Assembly (NCBI GenBank): GCA_025060695.1
Contig: JANXBH010000002.1
Coordinates: 82,996 to 146,995, forward strand
Source of the DNA: a candidate division WOR-3 bacterium
GTDB taxonomy: Bacteria; Hydrothermota; Hydrothermia; LBFQ01; DSFT01
Direction: 5' to 3'
Length of the DNA: 64,000 nucleotides
Below are positions 25,295-55,126 of this stretch, in pieces (within the stretch, counting starts at the first letter, position 1; every line of letters starts with the position of its first letter). The notes under the pieces were generated by a model. It was given only the letters and a program-made list of their open reading frames with translations, was not told the origin of the DNA and did not search any database. The position numbers and the translations under genes are program-made.

Positions 25295-26017
25295 TTGGAT
25301 ATACTAAAAGCACAAGGACTCGTTAAAAAATATGGAAAGAGAACAGTAGTAAAAGGTATTAATATTGAAGTTTGTACAGGTGAAGTAGTAGCACTTCTTG
25401 GACCAAATGGTGCAGGAAAAACAACAACATTCTATATGATTATGGGAGCAATAAAACCAAACAAAGGGAAGGTATTTCTCGACGATAAAGAAATTACGAG
25501 ACTTCCAATGTACAAAAGAGCAAGACTTGGTATAGGTTATTTACCACAAGAAGCATCTATTTTTAGAAATCTTAAAGTATGGGATAATGTATATAGCGTC
25601 CTTGAAATGAAGAAAATGAAAAAAATAGAAAGAATAGAAAAGACCAAAAAGCTTTTAGAAATGTTGAATGTTTTAAAAGTAAAAGATAATAAGGGTTACC
25701 AGCTTTCGGGTGGTGAAAGAAGAAGAGTTGAAATAGCAAGAGCACTTGCATTAGACCCGAAGTTCTTACTATTAGATGAACCTTTTACAGGAATTGACCC
25801 AAAAACAAGAGAAGAAATACAAGATATCATAATTCAGTTAAAGAATATTGGAATTGGTATTTTAATTACAGACCATAACGTAAGGGAAACACTTGAAATT
25901 ACCGATAGGGCTTATATTATATACGATGGAGAGATTTTGATTGAGGGAACATCTAAGGAATTAATAGAAAATCCAAGAGTTAGAGAGCTATATATTGGTT
26001 GGAGATTTAAAATTTAG
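25295..26017 (+). CDS. lptB: LPS export ABC transporter ATP-binding protein
   Basis: 'GPNGAGKTT', 'LSGGERRRVEIAR' and 'LLLDEPF'; 240 aa. Confidence 0.8.
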   Translation: MDILKAQGLVKKYGKRTVVKGINIEVCTGEVVALLGPNGAGKTTTFYMIMGAIKPNKGKVFLDDKEITRLPMYKRARLGIGYLPQEASIFRNLKVWDNVYSVLEMKKMKKIERIEKTKKLLEMLNVLKVKDNKGYQLSGGERRRVEIARALALDPKFLLLDEPFTGIDPKTREEIQDIIIQLKNIGIGILITDHNVRETLEITDRAYIIYDGEILIEGTSKELIENPRVRELYIGWRFKI

Positions 26018-26022
26018 TATAG

Positions 26023-26559
26023 GTGGTATTTGGTATATTGTCTGTTATTATAGGTTCGGTTTTAGGAATTTATTCTATTTATTTAATGAGAGTAAAAAAT
26101 GATATAGTTCTTCCTTCAATACTGATAGTTTTTGTGCACTTTGCTATGATTTTGGGTATATTTCTTATTACAAAGAATATAGGACTTGGCTTTGTAGCAA
26201 TGATATTTTATAATATTCTCTTCGTTTCTGAAATTATCATCTATATTATTAGAAATAAGGATACAAGTGCGAAAATTGAGAAACTTAAAAGTGATGTAAA
26301 TGAGGAAATCAAGTTTTGGGAAAGTGTGTTTTTAGAAAATCACAGATTTGTAGACGATGAGGAATGTTTCCATCATTTGTTAAGAGTTAATAAACTCGTA
26401 GAAAGAGCAAGAGAACTTAATTTAATTGAAATAGTAAATCCGCTTCTAAATTTTATTGCAAAAAATAAGGACTATTTTAAAAACTATGGAGTATCAAGAA
26501 TTTCAGAAAATGCTAATATAGATAGAAATAGCTGGTGGCTATATGTAGATAAGATGTAA
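26023..26559 (+). CDS. hypothetical membrane protein
   Basis: three predicted TM segments at the N-terminus. Confidence 0.3.
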   Translation: MVFGILSVIIGSVLGIYSIYLMRVKNDIVLPSILIVFVHFAMILGIFLITKNIGLGFVAMIFYNILFVSEIIIYIIRNKDTSAKIEKLKSDVNEEIKFWESVFLENHRFVDDEECFHHLLRVNKLVERARELNLIEIVNPLLNFIAKNKDYFKNYGVSRISENANIDRNSWWLYVDKM

Positions 26560-26589
26560 GAATAATAATAGCATAACTATACTTTAGTG

Positions 26590-26601
26590 CTTTAAAATTT
26601 T
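26590..26601 (+). promoter_or_regulatory. CTTTAAAATTTT element 6 nt upstream of the ferredoxin ATG
   Basis: exact 12-mer with no SD between motif and ATG (leaderless-type configuration). Confidence 0.5.
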
Positions 26602-26607
26602 ATTACT

Positions 26608-26901
26608 ATGGCATACGTAATAACACAACCCTGCATAGGAACGAAGAGTGGAGAGTGTGTCCAAGTTTGTCCAGTAGACGCTATCCATCCAAGAAGAGAT
26701 GAAAATTGGGATGAAACTACACAGCTATATATAGACCCAAATACCTGTATAGAGTGTGGAGCTTGTGCTTCAGTATGCCCAGTAAGTGCAATATACCAAG
26801 AAAATGACGTTCCGGAAGAATGGAAACACTTCATAGAGAAAAATGCAGACTACTATAGAATGGATAAAGAAAGCTTTAAGGCTAAATGGAATTCACTATA
26901 A
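26608..26901 (+). CDS. fdxA: 7Fe-type ferredoxin
   Basis: 'CIGTKSGECVQVCPVD' and 'CIECGACASVCP'. Confidence 0.8.
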   Translation: MAYVITQPCIGTKSGECVQVCPVDAIHPRRDENWDETTQLYIDPNTCIECGACASVCPVSAIYQENDVPEEWKHFIEKNADYYRMDKESFKAKWNSL

Positions 26902-26919
26902 AAACTTGGGGGTTATGCT

Positions 26920-27243
26920 ATGTTTCAGGTTAAGTCTGAGGAAAAAGAAGTTTACATAAGAAAGTTATCACTTGAAAAAAAAGTCTCAAATGATGACTCT
27001 TCTACATATGAAATTGATTATACTATAAATCTTCTCTTTGCTCCTACTCGTTTTATAAAACCTGAAACCTATGATCCTGAAGGTGATGTAGGAAAATCTT
27101 TTACTGCCCGTCCTTTCCATTTTTCGAATACTTTGGTTGATATAAATTTGGTACGAGCAATAACGAAAGTTCTATCACAAAATGTGGAACACAGATTTTC
27201 CTCTGTTAAAAAAGATGATAAACCAAGAATAATTTTGTTTTAA
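26920..27243 (+). CDS. hypothetical protein
   Basis: ORF with an upstream GGGGG SD-like element; no recognisable motif. Confidence 0.3.
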   Translation: MFQVKSEEKEVYIRKLSLEKKVSNDDSSTYEIDYTINLLFAPTRFIKPETYDPEGDVGKSFTARPFHFSNTLVDINLVRAITKVLSQNVEHRFSSVKKDDKPRIILF

Positions 27244-27295
27244 AGATTTTAAATTTACTAATACTTTATTGTTATAAAACTTTGCTGAAGGCTAA

Positions 27296-29029
27296 GTGGG
27301 GTTCGCTATAGGGACCATTGGTCCCTTTTTACTAAGTATTTCTGACTATTACTATTTTTCAAGAGCATTAAGTCATTATGGATTAAATTTTTCTGACTTA
27401 GGATATTTTAAAGATATTTCTGTTGAAACCAATTTAAAACCCCTTGGCTTTTTAAATTTCCTAAAAAGTCCCTTTAAAATTGATACGTTTGGTTATAAAA
27501 TATTAAGCAATATTCCTATCATAACTCTTGAAACTATTATAAATGAGTATTATGACATTAAGCTAATCGGACCTTATTCCATTGTATTTGATTTGAATGA
27601 TACGCTCTTTAATGAATTTGAAATGAATATTAAATATCATCTTCAAAAAATTTTAAAAACTGCAGAAATATATTCTTTTTACATGGAACACTCAAACATA
27701 ACCTTAGATGAGATTGAAACTTTGTTAAAATTTGCAAAAGAGAATATAATGGAAGATAGTTCTAATATATCGAAAGACAGTGTCGTAAGTTATTTAAAAA
27801 AAATAAATTTTAGGGATTTTTTTTATGCACATTTGACACTATTAAATACATTTCTTGAGCTAAGAGACGTAATAAAGGTATTAAAGGGAAAAAGTATAAA
27901 TTTGGTATATGAAACGCAGTTTGGAAAAGTTATAATTACTGATAGCCTTTTGCCTTCAGACAGCGATTTTATATATATAAATACAAGAGGAAGTCAAAAA
28001 TATAGTAAAATATGCAATAGTAATATTAGAATTTGTGCATTTTTTGACCTTGAGGGAAACGATATTTATAACTTCGATAGTTTTTCTGTTCATACCGAGT
28101 ATGGCTTAGTATTTTTCTATGAAGATGGAGGTGATGATATTTACAAATGTTTAGGATTTTGTCTTTCTTCTTCAATTTTAGGACTTAGTTATTTTGAGGA
28201 TAATAGTGGAAATGACTACTACGATAGTGGCAAGTTTTCAATTTCTGCAAGCTATTATGGAATTTCAGTATTTTTAGATAAAACGGGGGATGATATTTAT
28301 AGGGCTGTAAACTCATCTTTGGGTTTTAGTAGTATATGGGGAATTAGTGTATTTAAGGATGAAAGTGGAAATGATAGTTATTATCTTGGTAGATATTTTG
28401 AACATAAGCCACTTTGGAAAAACGAATATTTTGGCTTAGGTCTTGGTTTCTCCATAGGCATGAGAGAAGATATAGCTGGTGGTATTTCTGTTTTTGTAGA
28501 TTATGATGGAAATGACCTTTACAGCTGTGGGACATATTGTTTAGGCAGTGCATACTGGTATTCAACGGGAATATTTATAGATTTAAAGGGTAATGATAGG
28601 TATATTGGAGTTCAATATGGTATTGGTTCAGGCATTCATATTGGTATAGGTGGTTTTTTTGATTTAGAAGGAAATGATATATATATATTTAGAGCTGGAC
28701 CTTCTATTGGAAGTGCACATGATTTTGGAACGGGTTTTTTTTACGATAAACTTGGAGATGATATTTACTATGTTTCAGGCGGTATTGGAAATAGTATAGC
28801 AAACGGTCTTGGTATATTTATTGATTCTCATGGTAATGATATTTACAATTTTACTGAATTTAACCTAAGTTGCGGTGCAAGTCAAAAGTTAGATAAGCAA
28901 AGAGAATTTCTTGGACTTGGTATATTTATAGATAAAGAAGGTAATGATAGTTATCCAACAGTTTCTAAATGTAAAAATAATTCTACTTGGAAAGTTGGTG
29001 ATATTGGCATTGGTTTTGATGGTTTTTAA
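27296..29029 (+). CDS. tandem-repeat protein with about 11 copies of a 26-28 aa unit (F-x-D-x-x-G-[ND]-D-x-Y ...); true start probably downstream (about 27602 or 27629)
   Basis: the units 'FDLEGNDIY', 'DGGDDIY', 'SGNDYY', 'TGDDIY', 'SGNDSY', 'DGNDLY', 'KGNDRY', 'EGNDIY', 'LGDDIY', 'HGNDIY' and 'EGNDSY' recur at regular spacing; the GTG at 27296 is upstream of a terminator-like hairpin. Confidence 0.5.
   Translation: MGFAIGTIGPFLLSISDYYYFSRALSHYGLNFSDLGYFKDISVETNLKPLGFLNFLKSPFKIDTFGYKILSNIPIITLETIINEYYDIKLIGPYSIVFDLNDTLFNEFEMNIKYHLQKILKTAEIYSFYMEHSNITLDEIETLLKFAKENIMEDSSNISKDSVVSYLKKINFRDFFYAHLTLLNTFLELRDVIKVLKGKSINLVYETQFGKVIITDSLLPSDSDFIYINTRGSQKYSKICNSNIRICAFFDLEGNDIYNFDSFSVHTEYGLVFFYEDGGDDIYKCLGFCLSSSILGLSYFEDNSGNDYYDSGKFSISASYYGISVFLDKTGDDIYRAVNSSLGFSSIWGISVFKDESGNDSYYLGRYFEHKPLWKNEYFGLGLGFSIGMREDIAGGISVFVDYDGNDLYSCGTYCLGSAYWYSTGIFIDLKGNDRYIGVQYGIGSGIHIGIGGFFDLEGNDIYIFRAGPSIGSAHDFGTGFFYDKLGDDIYYVSGGIGNSIANGLGIFIDSHGNDIYNFTEFNLSCGASQKLDKQREFLGLGIFIDKEGNDSYPTVSKCKNNSTWKVGDIGIGFDGF
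27311..27330 (+). terminator. putative Rho-independent terminator (GGGACC-ATT-GGTCCC followed by TTTTT)
   Basis: perfect 6-bp stem, 3-nt loop and T5 tract, 68 nt after the 26920..27243 stop; it lies inside the longest-ORF version of the next gene. Confidence 0.5.
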
Positions 29030-29418
29030 ACCACTTTAATCCATACTTCTCTTTGTCTTGGTCCATCAAATTCACAAAATAAAATCCCTTGCCACCTTCC
29101 AAGCTTTATTTCTCCATTCTCTAATATAAGCATTATGCTTGAACCTATTAAACTTGATTTTATATGAGCATCCGCGTTCCCCTCCAAGTGTTTATAATTC
29201 CCATTTCTTGGAACAAGCTTATTTAGAAAGTCCAAAATATCTTCTTTAACAGAAGGGTCATAATTCTCATTTATAGTTATTCCCGCAGTAGTATGTGGAA
29301 CATATAGTATTAAAATTCCATCCTTTTTTTCTAATGTTTTTATAGAAGATGAAACTATGTCCGTAATATCAACAATTTGATATTTCTGATAAGTCTTTAT
29401 ATTAATCTTTAACATCAC
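29026..29418 (-). CDS. yjbQ: YjbQ/UPF0047 family protein (secondary thiamine-phosphate synthase-like)
   Basis: 'HTTAGITINEN' and 'EGNADAHIKSSL'. Confidence 0.7.
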   Translation of the reverse strand: MMLKINIKTYQKYQIVDITDIVSSSIKTLEKKDGILILYVPHTTAGITINENYDPSVKEDILDFLNKLVPRNGNYKHLEGNADAHIKSSLIGSSIMLILENGEIKLGRWQGILFCEFDGPRQREVWIKVV

Positions 29419-30313
29419 TAAATTTTAATGCTCTTTTAAAAAAGCTATATGCGTTATTGTAGAAGAAATTGTTTACATATTCATCAGGTAAATATTTTTT
29501 TAGCTCTAAGTATAGATTTTTTAAATCATTTGGCTTACTTAAATTTTCTATCTTATGCTCTTGTGAAATTCCATAAAAATCACTTCCTATACATAAGGTA
29601 TTTGGGTATTTTTCAATGAGTTTCGAAACATACTTTGCTATGTCTGTCAGTGTTGCTTTTGAGAGAAATATATCCGCAAACGCTATACCAACGATACCAT
29701 TTATCTTTGAAATTTCATAAATCATATCTTCACTAACATTTCTTTTTATATTAGAAATTTCTCTTATACCAGTATGCGATACGAAGATATTTTGTTTAAA
29801 GTTTTCTATTACATTGAAGAAAGTTCTATCGCTTGCATGCGAAAGGTCAATAGTCATATTTAAACTAATAGCTGTTTTGACTACATCATAGCCTAAATCA
29901 GTTAATCCATAGTCATTTTTACTATTCCAATGAGGACAAATTAAATTATCCTTATTCCAAACAAGCCCTAAAACTTTTATTCCAAGTCTATTCATTATCC
30001 TAACTTCATAAGTACTTCTTACAAAATAAAGTCCCTCAACTGCTAATATTATATTTCCTTCATCAAACTCCTCTATACCTTTAATAATTTTCAAATTGAA
30101 CTCTTTTTCTATTTCATATGCAATTTCAATACCTCTTAATGTATAAATTAGTGGCTCTTCCACGTCCAATATTTTATAAAAACCCCTAAAAGGGAATATA
30201 GCAAATACGAATTTATCTATATTTAAGTTCTTATATTCATTCAGAATACTTACGTTATTAGGATTGTCAATAATATAGTAAAGTAAGTCCTGATGCAAAT
30301 CAAAAACTTTCAT
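29402..30313 (-). CDS. membrane dipeptidase (peptidase M19)-like
   Basis: 'DLHQDL', 'DLSHAS', 'VSHTG' and 'GSDFYG' parallel the M19 motifs. Confidence 0.55.
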   Translation of the reverse strand: MKVFDLHQDLLYYIIDNPNNVSILNEYKNLNIDKFVFAIFPFRGFYKILDVEEPLIYTLRGIEIAYEIEKEFNLKIIKGIEEFDEGNIILAVEGLYFVRSTYEVRIMNRLGIKVLGLVWNKDNLICPHWNSKNDYGLTDLGYDVVKTAISLNMTIDLSHASDRTFFNVIENFKQNIFVSHTGIREISNIKRNVSEDMIYEISKINGIVGIAFADIFLSKATLTDIAKYVSKLIEKYPNTLCIGSDFYGISQEHKIENLSKPNDLKNLYLELKKYLPDEYVNNFFYNNAYSFFKRALKFSDVKD

Positions 30314-54239: not shown

Positions 54240-54682
54240 ATGCAATTCACCTTCATCTAATTCTAAATCATTTTCCAACGGTTGGATTTATAATAGTTCT
54301 ATTTATTTTTCTTCACGGTTTATATAGAAAGAATGAAGAATTTAACTTTGTTTCCTTATGGTTCATAATTGTACTTTCAGTAATTACTATTTTTGTATAT
54401 CTTTCAGGAGAGGGTGCGGAGGAATTACTTAAAAACAAATTGGATAAAGAACACATAGAAATTCACGAGAGTTTTGGTAAAATTTCTTTATACCTTTCAA
54501 TTGTTCTTGGTTTACTCTCAGCATTTTCACTTATTACAAAAAAGCTTAGATGGTTAGTTTTAATTTTACTAATAATAAATATCTTGTCTTTGGGCATTAC
54601 AAGCTTTTATGGGGCACAAATAAGGCATGAAGAAATAAGGAATTTACCAATTAAAAAGGAGGTAAGAAACTATGAACGCTGA
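54236..54682 (+). CDS. His-rich 4-TM membrane protein coupled to cbaB (possible oxidase accessory subunit)
   Basis: 'HLHLILNHFP' at TM1; overlaps the cbaB start by 11 nt. Confidence 0.35.
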   Translation: MNAIHLHLILNHFPTVGFIIVLFIFLHGLYRKNEEFNFVSLWFIIVLSVITIFVYLSGEGAEELLKNKLDKEHIEIHESFGKISLYLSIVLGLLSAFSLITKKLRWLVLILLIINILSLGITSFYGAQIRHEEIRNLPIKKEVRNYER

Positions 54683-55106
54683 AAAACTTGCATTGAGTTT
54701 ATCAAGTATCTTACTTTTGCTATTTTTCGCACTAATTTTATATGGTGCATACGTAAGGGGTATAGACTTACCAACTTGCATAACTAATGTAAAGCCCTTT
54801 GATAAAGACACAGTAATTAAAATTTCTGAAAATAGATATGAGATTAGATATATCGCAAGACAATTTAGTTTCTTCCCTATGGAAGTAAAAATACCTAAGA
54901 ATTCCATAGTGGACATATACTTAACAAGTCCGGATGTTACACATGGAATGCAAATTGAAAATACTAACGTAAATCTAATGGCTATTCCCGGAGCTATTAC
55001 TTATTACAGGGTAAAGTTTGATAAACCTGGAGAATACAGAGTAGTTTGTCATGAATACTGTGGACTTGGGCATCAGAATATGATGAGCAAAATTATCGTA
55101 TATTAG
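54672..55106 (+). CDS. cbaB: ba3-type cytochrome c oxidase subunit II (CuA)
   Basis: 'TSPDVTHGMQIENTNVNLMAIPG' and CuA ligands 'CHEYCGLGHQNM' match Thermus CbaB. Confidence 0.85.
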   Translation: MNAEKLALSLSSILLLLFFALILYGAYVRGIDLPTCITNVKPFDKDTVIKISENRYEIRYIARQFSFFPMEVKIPKNSIVDIYLTSPDVTHGMQIENTNVNLMAIPGAITYYRVKFDKPGEYRVVCHEYCGLGHQNMMSKIIVY

Positions 55107-55126
55107 GGGGGTTCCCCCCTTTCTTT
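55106..55126. terminator. GC-rich hairpin GGGGGG-TT-CCCCCC followed by TTTCTTT, between convergent cbaB and kpsF
   Basis: perfect 6-bp G:C stem in an otherwise AT-rich genome, immediately after the cbaB TAG. Confidence 0.6.

Follow-up and report, generated by a model that had tools for sequence, protein, structure and literature searches.

The 64-kb window analysed here (the whole stretch of DNA, of which a part is given above) derives from a candidate division WOR-3 bacterium. This work concerns a gene on its forward strand, at 27296–29029 (the target), together with the ferredoxin gene upstream of it and an RNA stem-loop that the 5′ end of the target overlies. The product has 577 amino acids (aa), and the identical protein has an NCBI record, from a metagenome-assembled genome (MAG) of candidate division WOR-3, under the name "hypothetical protein". 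The features of the coding sequence are as follows.

27296–29029, forward strand: complete coding sequence, 577 aa, with a GTG start and a TAA stop
27310–27330, forward strand: GC-rich RNA stem-loop, AGGGACC-ATT-GGTCCCT followed by a T tract, inside codons 5–12
27338–27883, forward strand: predicted N-terminal all-helical domain (residues ~15–196), with no recognisable structural or sequence relative
27893–29026, forward strand: predicted parallel β-solenoid (residues 200–577), in which some 12 coils of about 27 residues have three strands each
27959–28033, forward strand: degenerate first coil
28034–29026, forward strand: 11 coils with a φ-x-D-x-x-G-(N/D)-D-x-Y turn (residues 247–577)
28382–28441, forward strand: 20-residue loop inserted in coil 6 (residues 363–382, YLGRYFEHKPLWKNEYFGLG), conserved among WOR-3 orthologs
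28463–28903, forward strand: span of the near-invariant non-repeat residues R390, Y420/W421, Y441, H448, H475/D476, N503 and R536

The coding sequence and its start codon

The open reading frame (ORF) at 27296–29029 is shown to be a genuine gene that is translated from GTG 27296. An in-frame TAA directly precedes this GTG, which is the sole canonical start between that stop codon and the invariant residue D17. Residues 13–100 are conserved in 12 aligned orthologs down to 45% identity, and the positions invariant among these orthologs include D17, L25, Y28, G29, D34-L35-G36, K39, D40, T45, K48, P49, G51 and P59. The same stretch contains the family-wide motif DLxFxKD...P59, the proline of which only one of 154 diverse family members lacks. 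In a structure model computed with AlphaFold2 (AF2) from an 80-sequence alignment, which reached a predicted local distance difference test (pLDDT) score of 94.7 and a predicted template modelling (pTM) score of 0.94, the region of residues 1–100 forms helices with pLDDT above 90 that pack into the N-terminal domain.

A reading made from the sequence alone (the sequence-only reading) had instead let the stem-loop end the preceding gene, had taken the first ~100 codons to be untranslated and had placed the real start at a TTG or an ATG further downstream. Both codons are present in frame (TTG 27593 is codon 100 and ATG 27623 is codon 110), and a hairpin followed by five T residues (T5) does fit the terminator consensus, but both candidate starts lie inside the folded N-terminal domain. 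A downstream start is rejected because residues 13–100 are conserved and well folded, and because no canonical start other than GTG 27296 precedes them. Homologs thus carry a conserved peptide in the stretch that was supposed to be untranslated, which is the observation that the sequence-only reading had itself named as telling against an untranslated hairpin. The late start is already effectively refuted and must be considered extremely improbable.

The predicted β-solenoid and its near-invariant residues

In the AF2 model, residues 15–196 form ten helices and residues 200–577 a regular parallel β-solenoid. The target is, as modelled, a two-domain protein in which a new helical domain is followed by a 12-turn β-solenoid with calcium-site-like turns; a Foldseek search against the Protein Data Bank (PDB) returned nothing with E<0.4. 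About 11 tandem repeats at regular spacing had been proposed from the sequence, and all 11 listed motifs are found, namely FDLEGNDIY, DGGDDIY, SGNDYY, TGDDIY, SGNDSY, DGNDLY, KGNDRY, EGNDIY, LGDDIY, HGNDIY and EGNDSY, with their G[NDG]D triplets at residues 254, 278, 305, 331, 358, 405, 432, 459, 487, 513 and 549. Divided in register, the sequence gives units of 24, 27, 26, 27, 47, 27, 27, 28, 26, 36 and 36 residues, the long ones having loop insertions within them, and a degenerate twelfth unit (residues 222–246, FIYINTRGSQKY) precedes the others. The autocorrelation of residues peaks at lags 27 and 54, which gives a period of 27, and G[ND]D.Y occurs 11 times, whereas 20,000 shuffles averaged 0.06 and never exceeded 3. 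The β-helix or β-roll type of fold that had been proposed along with the repeats agrees with the three-strand parallel β-solenoid of the model.

Residue conservation was counted in 154 mutually diverse family members, which share about 25% identity. The D-x-x-G-x-D-x-Y repeat positions are invariant among them in the first full coil, where these were checked. Across the coils as a whole, these positions are invariant or nearly so. Nine residues outside the repeat motif are conserved as follows.

R390: 151 of 154
Y420: 154 of 154
W421: 149 of 154
Y441: 152 of 154
H448: 153 of 154
H475: 150 of 154
D476: 153 of 154
N503: 145 of 154
R536: 145 of 154

All of these except Y441 are located 3–8 residues ahead of the first strand of the next coil, on the consecutive coils 6–11. 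From the repeat register and the DSSP assignment of the model, they would form a single ladder at one corner of the solenoid, about six coils long. Each rung of the ladder retains its own residue type (R, Y/W, H, H/D, N and R). Because each rung keeps a distinct, near-invariant residue type, the pattern suggests a specific ligand-binding or catalytic groove rather than a structural stack. Sets of Arg, Tyr, His, Asn and Asp residues are typical of uronate lyases and epimerases that are built on β-helices.

The family to which the target belongs is large. A word-indexed protein search found 116 relatives, and the 12 near-full-length orthologs that were aligned, from Candidatus Hydrothermia and candidate division WOR-3, are 45–88% identical. 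Distant relatives of 570–1000 aa occur in MAGs labelled Kapabacteria, Fermentibacteria, Zixibacteria, Verrucomicrobiota, Planctomycetes and others, and the reach of this GNDxY family (after its turn motif) covers WOR-3, the FCB group, the PVC group and other phyla. A profile search of 1.84 billion representatives returned 4,722 clusters (50% identity) at E≤1e-3; 2,980 of them reached E≤1e-30. The window protein matches the family profile over its full length, including DLxFxKD...P and R390/Y420/W421/Y441/H448/H475/D476/N503/R536.

Scans of the window protein against Pfam, NCBIfam and PADLOC gave no match, and a scan against PHROGs gave two insignificant matches only. In the relatives, many of which are fusions, the only Pfam domains are C-terminal HEAT repeats or an N-terminal PDZ domain. 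Searches of PDB sequences with phmmer and with profiles found nothing for the solenoid, a literature search for the repeat motif found nothing relevant, and tblastn found neither a separate HEAT partner nor a paralog in the window. As far as sequence comparison can tell, this is a family of roughly 4,700 clusters without a Pfam or NCBIfam model or a sequence-detectable solved relative.

Two irregular architectures were seen in the family. In six relatives of ~841 aa (P0033, P0035, P0039, P0040, P0042 and P0046), a segment that usually stands between the solenoid and the HEAT repeats (...DSLF..AS...) appears at the N-terminal side, where it directly follows a signal-peptide-like N-terminus; this suggests a permutation of domain order within the family. 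A single representative (P0182, 1265 aa) has an N-terminal fusion to RibD (deaminase/reductase), which is probably an artefact of assembly or gene calling, given that in a Kapabacteria locus (L047, 3600–8817) the second gene ahead of the family member is ribD.

Regarding localisation, a simple hydropathy count found a hydrophobic N-terminal window in 88 of 117 sequences, 65 of which also have an upstream K/R. In the WOR-3 orthologs the N-terminus is short (~14 hydrophobic residues) and uncharged, and a charged n-region is absent. The earlier statement that the protein has no signal peptide holds to the extent that its N-terminus is uncharged and short; it is nonetheless hydrophobic, and the N-termini of most distant relatives are signal-peptide-like.

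Envelope-biogenesis genes occur within a few kb of family members in several phyla. They include LptB, LptF/G, LpxK, GT9 (a glycosyltransferase family of the heptosyltransferase type), TamB, Omp85/BamA, OmpA and SecDF, and the loci concerned are the window itself (an LptB-like gene at 25295–26017), L001, L005, L008, L010, L012, L047 and L048. This proximity fits an envelope-associated role and may also be coincidence.

The ferredoxin junction and its stem-loop

The features upstream of and at the start of the target are as follows.

26608–26901, forward strand: ferredoxin gene, 97 aa, bearing two motifs for Fe-S clusters; invariably the target's upstream partner in WOR-3/Hydrothermia
26902–27287, forward strand: lineage-specific insertion that carries an orphan ORF (26920–27243) and parts the ferredoxin gene from the target in this genome only
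27288–27311, forward strand: second, relic 3′ end of ferredoxin (AAGGCTAAGTGGGGTTCGCTATAG, encoding K A K W G S L and a stop), which holds the GTG of the target and an AAGG Shine-Dalgarno-like tetramer

The perfect hairpin with a T5 tail that the sequence-only reading had reported inside the 5′ end of the ORF is found at 27310–27330. The stem-loop proper (27310–27326, then TTTT) overlies codons 5–11 of the target. With a 7-bp stem containing five GC pairs, a 3-nt loop and the T5 tail, it fits the pattern of an intrinsic (Rho-independent) terminator; it is the only terminator-like site in 26400–29600 and one of two perfect GC-rich hairpins in the window, which has a G+C content of 29.6%. A search of Rfam around the hairpin gave no match.

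Orthologous junctions were collected from genome and metagenome collections and come from WOR-3/Hydrothermia loci only; JGI metagenome samples such as 3300005851-3 are among those that yielded orthologs. In every one of the 30 loci retrieved, a ferredoxin gene of 85–97 codons lies immediately upstream of the target ortholog; this upstream ferredoxin is of the 7Fe type and resembles the housekeeping FdxA type. The stem is present in 16 of 16 distinct junction sequences from these loci, its pairs having been counted by script, since MAFFT had misplaced the sequences with 4-nt loops. Two clades can be distinguished.

In clade A (66–88% identity), the ferredoxin gene ends in ...AAG TGG GGT TCN YTR TAG and the GTG of the target lies within AAG TGG, which results in a gene overlap of 16 nt. 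The stem GGGACC/GGTCCC begins here at the G of the ferredoxin TAG and covers codons 6–11 of the target. In clade B (42–47% identity), an equivalent stem, GGGGGC/GCCCCC, is located in a short spacer between the ferredoxin stop and the ATG of the target. Six stem pairs are kept in every sequence; pairs 4 and 5 covary between the clades (A-U to G-C and C-G to G-C), and the variants in L001 and L031, which are independent of each other, form G.U pairs that are functional only in plus-strand RNA. A clean T5 after the stem is confined to the window and L001, the tail being T/C-rich in clade A.

It might be argued that the hairpin simply follows from a conserved peptide, G-T-x-G-P, and is functionless at the RNA level. 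Among its six stem pairs, four do involve first or second codon positions that are fixed by the residues Gly, Thr, Gly and Pro. However, the four wobble positions use rare codons (GGG, ACC and CCC account for 8%, 10.5% and 7% of their codon families in the window), which are kept in all clade A loci and whose joint probability is 2.6e-4. The equivalent stem of clade B moreover sits in non-coding DNA at the same junction, and the only changes seen in the stem are compatible with G.U pairing, which leaves the peptide by-product very improbable.

Taken together, the comparison of loci indicates that the hairpin is real, is selected at the RNA level and is ancestrally a 3′ element of the ferredoxin gene; it gives no evidence for a later start. 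The start codon of the target is found within the last codons of ferredoxin, and the first codons of the target overprint the hairpin. The view that the hairpin is the terminator of the preceding gene is accordingly upheld in part: in orthologous loci the stem does begin at the ferredoxin TAG stop, whereas clade B stems have no U tract directly behind them.

In 11 orthologs (L005–L007, L016, L021, L025–L027, L029, L032 and L033), the called start is an ATG inside the hairpin loop, which gives a protein of 569 aa. A 3-nt insertion enlarges the loop to 6 nt in these orthologs and leaves stem and frame intact; the reading frame still includes the conserved GTG within ferredoxin, ~20 nt ahead of the called start. 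The second perfect GC-rich hairpin of the window (55105–55120, AGGGGG-GTTC-CCCCCT, then TTCTTT) lies between convergent genes and begins at the G of the TAG of a COX2-like gene (54672–55106). A TAG followed by a GC stem and a T/C-rich tail may be the local form of terminator in this organism.

The window departs from the ancestral arrangement by the segment 26902–27287, which the 88%-identical locus L001 does not have. Two copies of the terminal 23 nt of ferredoxin lie 410 bp apart, at 26878–26900 and 27288–27310; the copies are 83% identical, each difference being an A in copy 1 and a G in copy 2, and the second copy retains the TAG of the relic, the start codon GTG and the hairpin. The insertion broke the 16-nt gene overlap, with the duplicated junction preserving both the ferredoxin end and the start of the target. 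The orphan ORF that it carries (26920–27243, forward strand) has 107 codons, a GGGGG Shine-Dalgarno-like run 9 nt upstream and a host-like composition, with a G+C content at third codon positions (GC3) of 0.185. Searches with this ORF gave no Pfam, PHROG, PADLOC or viral match, and in databases it is matched only by near-identical copies from WOR-3 MAGs (N2504_01880 and RMJ38_01595); it may be a lineage-specific orphan gene.

Two observations concern the region ahead of the ferredoxin gene. In several loci (L001, L005 and L012), the motif CTTTAAAATTT is located 8–10 nt ahead of the ferredoxin ATG, with no Shine-Dalgarno sequence; it may be the –10 element of a promoter with a very short leader. 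Immediately ahead of the relic ferredoxin end, 27261–27283 is a 19/23 look-alike of 26579–26601; the promoter region of ferredoxin may thus have been copied to the target, for which the statistical support is borderline.

The constancy of the ferredoxin-target pair could also be explained by function. The WOR-3 protein would then be cytoplasmic and a partner of ferredoxin, for example a metal-dependent redox enzyme with a site formed by H448, H475 and D476, and the pair would be invariant because of a joint redox function. This pair is the only adjacency kept over at least five flanking contexts, down to 42–47% identity, and its two genes share 16 nt in clade A; the WOR-3 N-termini do not have the charged n-region of a signal peptide, and the near-invariant His/His/Asp residues lie on adjacent coils. 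On the other hand, ferredoxin is absent beside the relatives in other phyla, most of which have signal-peptide-like N-termini, an insertion that uncouples both genes is tolerated in this genome, and the linkage may reflect shared transcription only, as this ferredoxin resembles a housekeeping type. A redox partnership is thus considered improbable.

Function and likeness to known systems

The explanation that we favour, with somewhat better than even confidence overall, is a calcium-turn solenoid with a ladder-lined groove, whose gene starts by overprinting the hairpin of ferredoxin. In each 27-residue coil, the φ-x-D-x-x-G-(N/D)-D-x-Y turn resembles the Ca2+-binding G-N-D-x-φ turn of RTX repeats and of MpAFP region IV, and by analogy the solenoid would be stabilised by one row of bound Ca2+ ions. 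A protein with such a row would therefore work outside the cytoplasm, as is presumed for the signal-peptide-like relatives. The ladder R390, Y420/W421, H448, H475/D476, N503 and R536, together with Y441, would form an extended groove that binds a cell-envelope polymer and probably acts on it chemically, and the HEAT and PDZ domains fused in relatives would tether the module to protein partners. At the RNA level, the stem-loop would be a leaky terminator or a 3′-end stabiliser of the ferredoxin message, so that read-through and translational coupling would give the solenoid gene a lower expression.

As for the chemistry, a reaction of the polysaccharide lyase or epimerase kind is the likeliest single guess, to be held tentatively; a non-catalytic binding role and lyase- or epimerase-like chemistry are about equally possible. 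The alternative in which the solenoid is a non-catalytic, Ca2+-stabilised scaffold or adhesin-like module, holding partners through its conserved face and the HEAT and PDZ domains, agrees with the nearest structure being a region of an adhesin (PMC3492233), with HEAT and PDZ being protein-interaction modules and with no enzyme family matching. Set against this is the fixed residue type at each ladder position across sequences of ~25% identity, a pattern seen more often with catalysis or a specific ligand than in a generic scaffold, and the scaffold is possible though rather doubtful. A bolder proposal goes beyond the favoured explanation: the GNDxY solenoid family would be a new class of extracytoplasmic, Ca2+-dependent β-helix enzymes that act on an envelope polymer with an R-Y/W-H-H/D-N-R active groove. 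In WOR-3, the start inside the ferredoxin gene and the overprinting of the ferredoxin terminator would be an unusual arrangement by which read-through meters the synthesis of the enzyme. In this full form it is unlikely.

Several points weigh against the calcium-turn solenoid and its regulated junction. The binding of Ca2+ is inferred from the likeness of the turns, and the Pfam RTX model has no match; the ladder at the corner of the coils could be structural rather than functional; and the HEAT and PDZ fusions hint at protein partners and not at a polysaccharide. Export of the window protein is uncertain, given the N-termini in WOR-3. No gene neighbour is common to the family across phyla (as judged from the distant loci P0018, P0050, P0057, P0082 and P0088), and because no neighbour is conserved in this way, genomic context lends no support to any substrate. 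At the junction, clade B has ATTCCAAAATG or a comparable sequence after the stem, with no T tract directly following, so the stem is not a canonical intrinsic terminator everywhere; a true terminator within the 5′ end of the gene would also limit that gene's own expression.

The analysis nevertheless gives a widespread family that is without a Pfam, NCBIfam or PDB sequence model a confident fold, a repeat grammar and nine near-invariant candidate functional residues, which renders structural and biochemical work on the family tractable. At the gene junction, nature offers a clean case of a conserved RNA stem-loop with a coding sequence written over it, and in this genome an insertion resolved the gene overlap by duplicating the junction.

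Region IV of MpAFP, the ice-binding adhesin of Marinomonas primoryensis (PDB 3p4g), is the nearest structure. It is a Ca2+-bound right-handed β-helix of thirteen 19-residue RTX-like repeats with the consensus xGTGNDxuxuGGxuxGxux, and contains the peptide IDAGTGNDEIY (PMC3492233). That peptide closely resembles FFDLEGNDIY of the window protein, and the β-helix can be superposed on the model, although Foldseek gave 3p4g a non-significant E of 7–10 and a profile search of PDB sequences did not find it at E≤10. The coil is 27 residues long in the window protein and 19 in MpAFP, and the window protein has neither the GG-x-φ-x-G second half of the repeat nor the Thr/Asx ice-binding face. It is also, in the WOR-3 lineage, a stand-alone protein of 577 aa with a helical N-terminal domain and not part of a giant adhesin.

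The β-roll repeats of RTX proteins (PF00353, HemolysinCabind) share the G-(N/D)-D-x-(Y/L/I) turn core with the window protein, and by this analogy dependence on Ca2+ is likely. They differ from it in that the GG-x-G nonapeptide is missing from the window protein, the period of which is 27 and not 9 or 18, and in that its predicted solenoid is three-sided, in contrast to the two-sided roll of RTX. PF00353 has no match in the window protein at E≤10, nor in 64 family members at E≤0.01. The exclusion of RTX repeats (GGxGxD) made from the sequence alone is correct for family membership but too strict for the turn, whose core looks like the latter half of the nonapeptide and like the GTGND turn in MpAFP; the chemistry of the turn is probably RTX-like. 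YD repeats were rightly set aside as well, there being no YD/Rhs match in Pfam or NCBIfam.

The three-stranded β-helix is also the fold of the pectate-lyase-like right-handed β-helix enzymes, for which PL6 alginate lyases, the AlgG/AlgE epimerases, chondroitinase B, tailspike depolymerases and NosD served as the comparison set. Identity to these is 3–12%, the regular D-x-x-G-N-D-x-Y turn is missing from those families, and the Pfam Beta_helix, NosD and pectate-lyase models have no match in the window protein or in the family members scanned.

The stem-loop, for its part, departs from intrinsic terminators in that the first codons of the downstream gene are printed over it and its U tract is not kept in all orthologs, but has in common with them, and with intercistronic stabilising stem-loops, a GC stem that begins at the upstream gene's stop codon, a loop of 3 nt and a tail rich in T. 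Current knowledge is not overturned by these results, as β-solenoids with RTX-like turns and terminator read-through are already known kinds; the target represents an ordinary kind of fold, in an uncharacterised family, with a well-defined candidate functional site.

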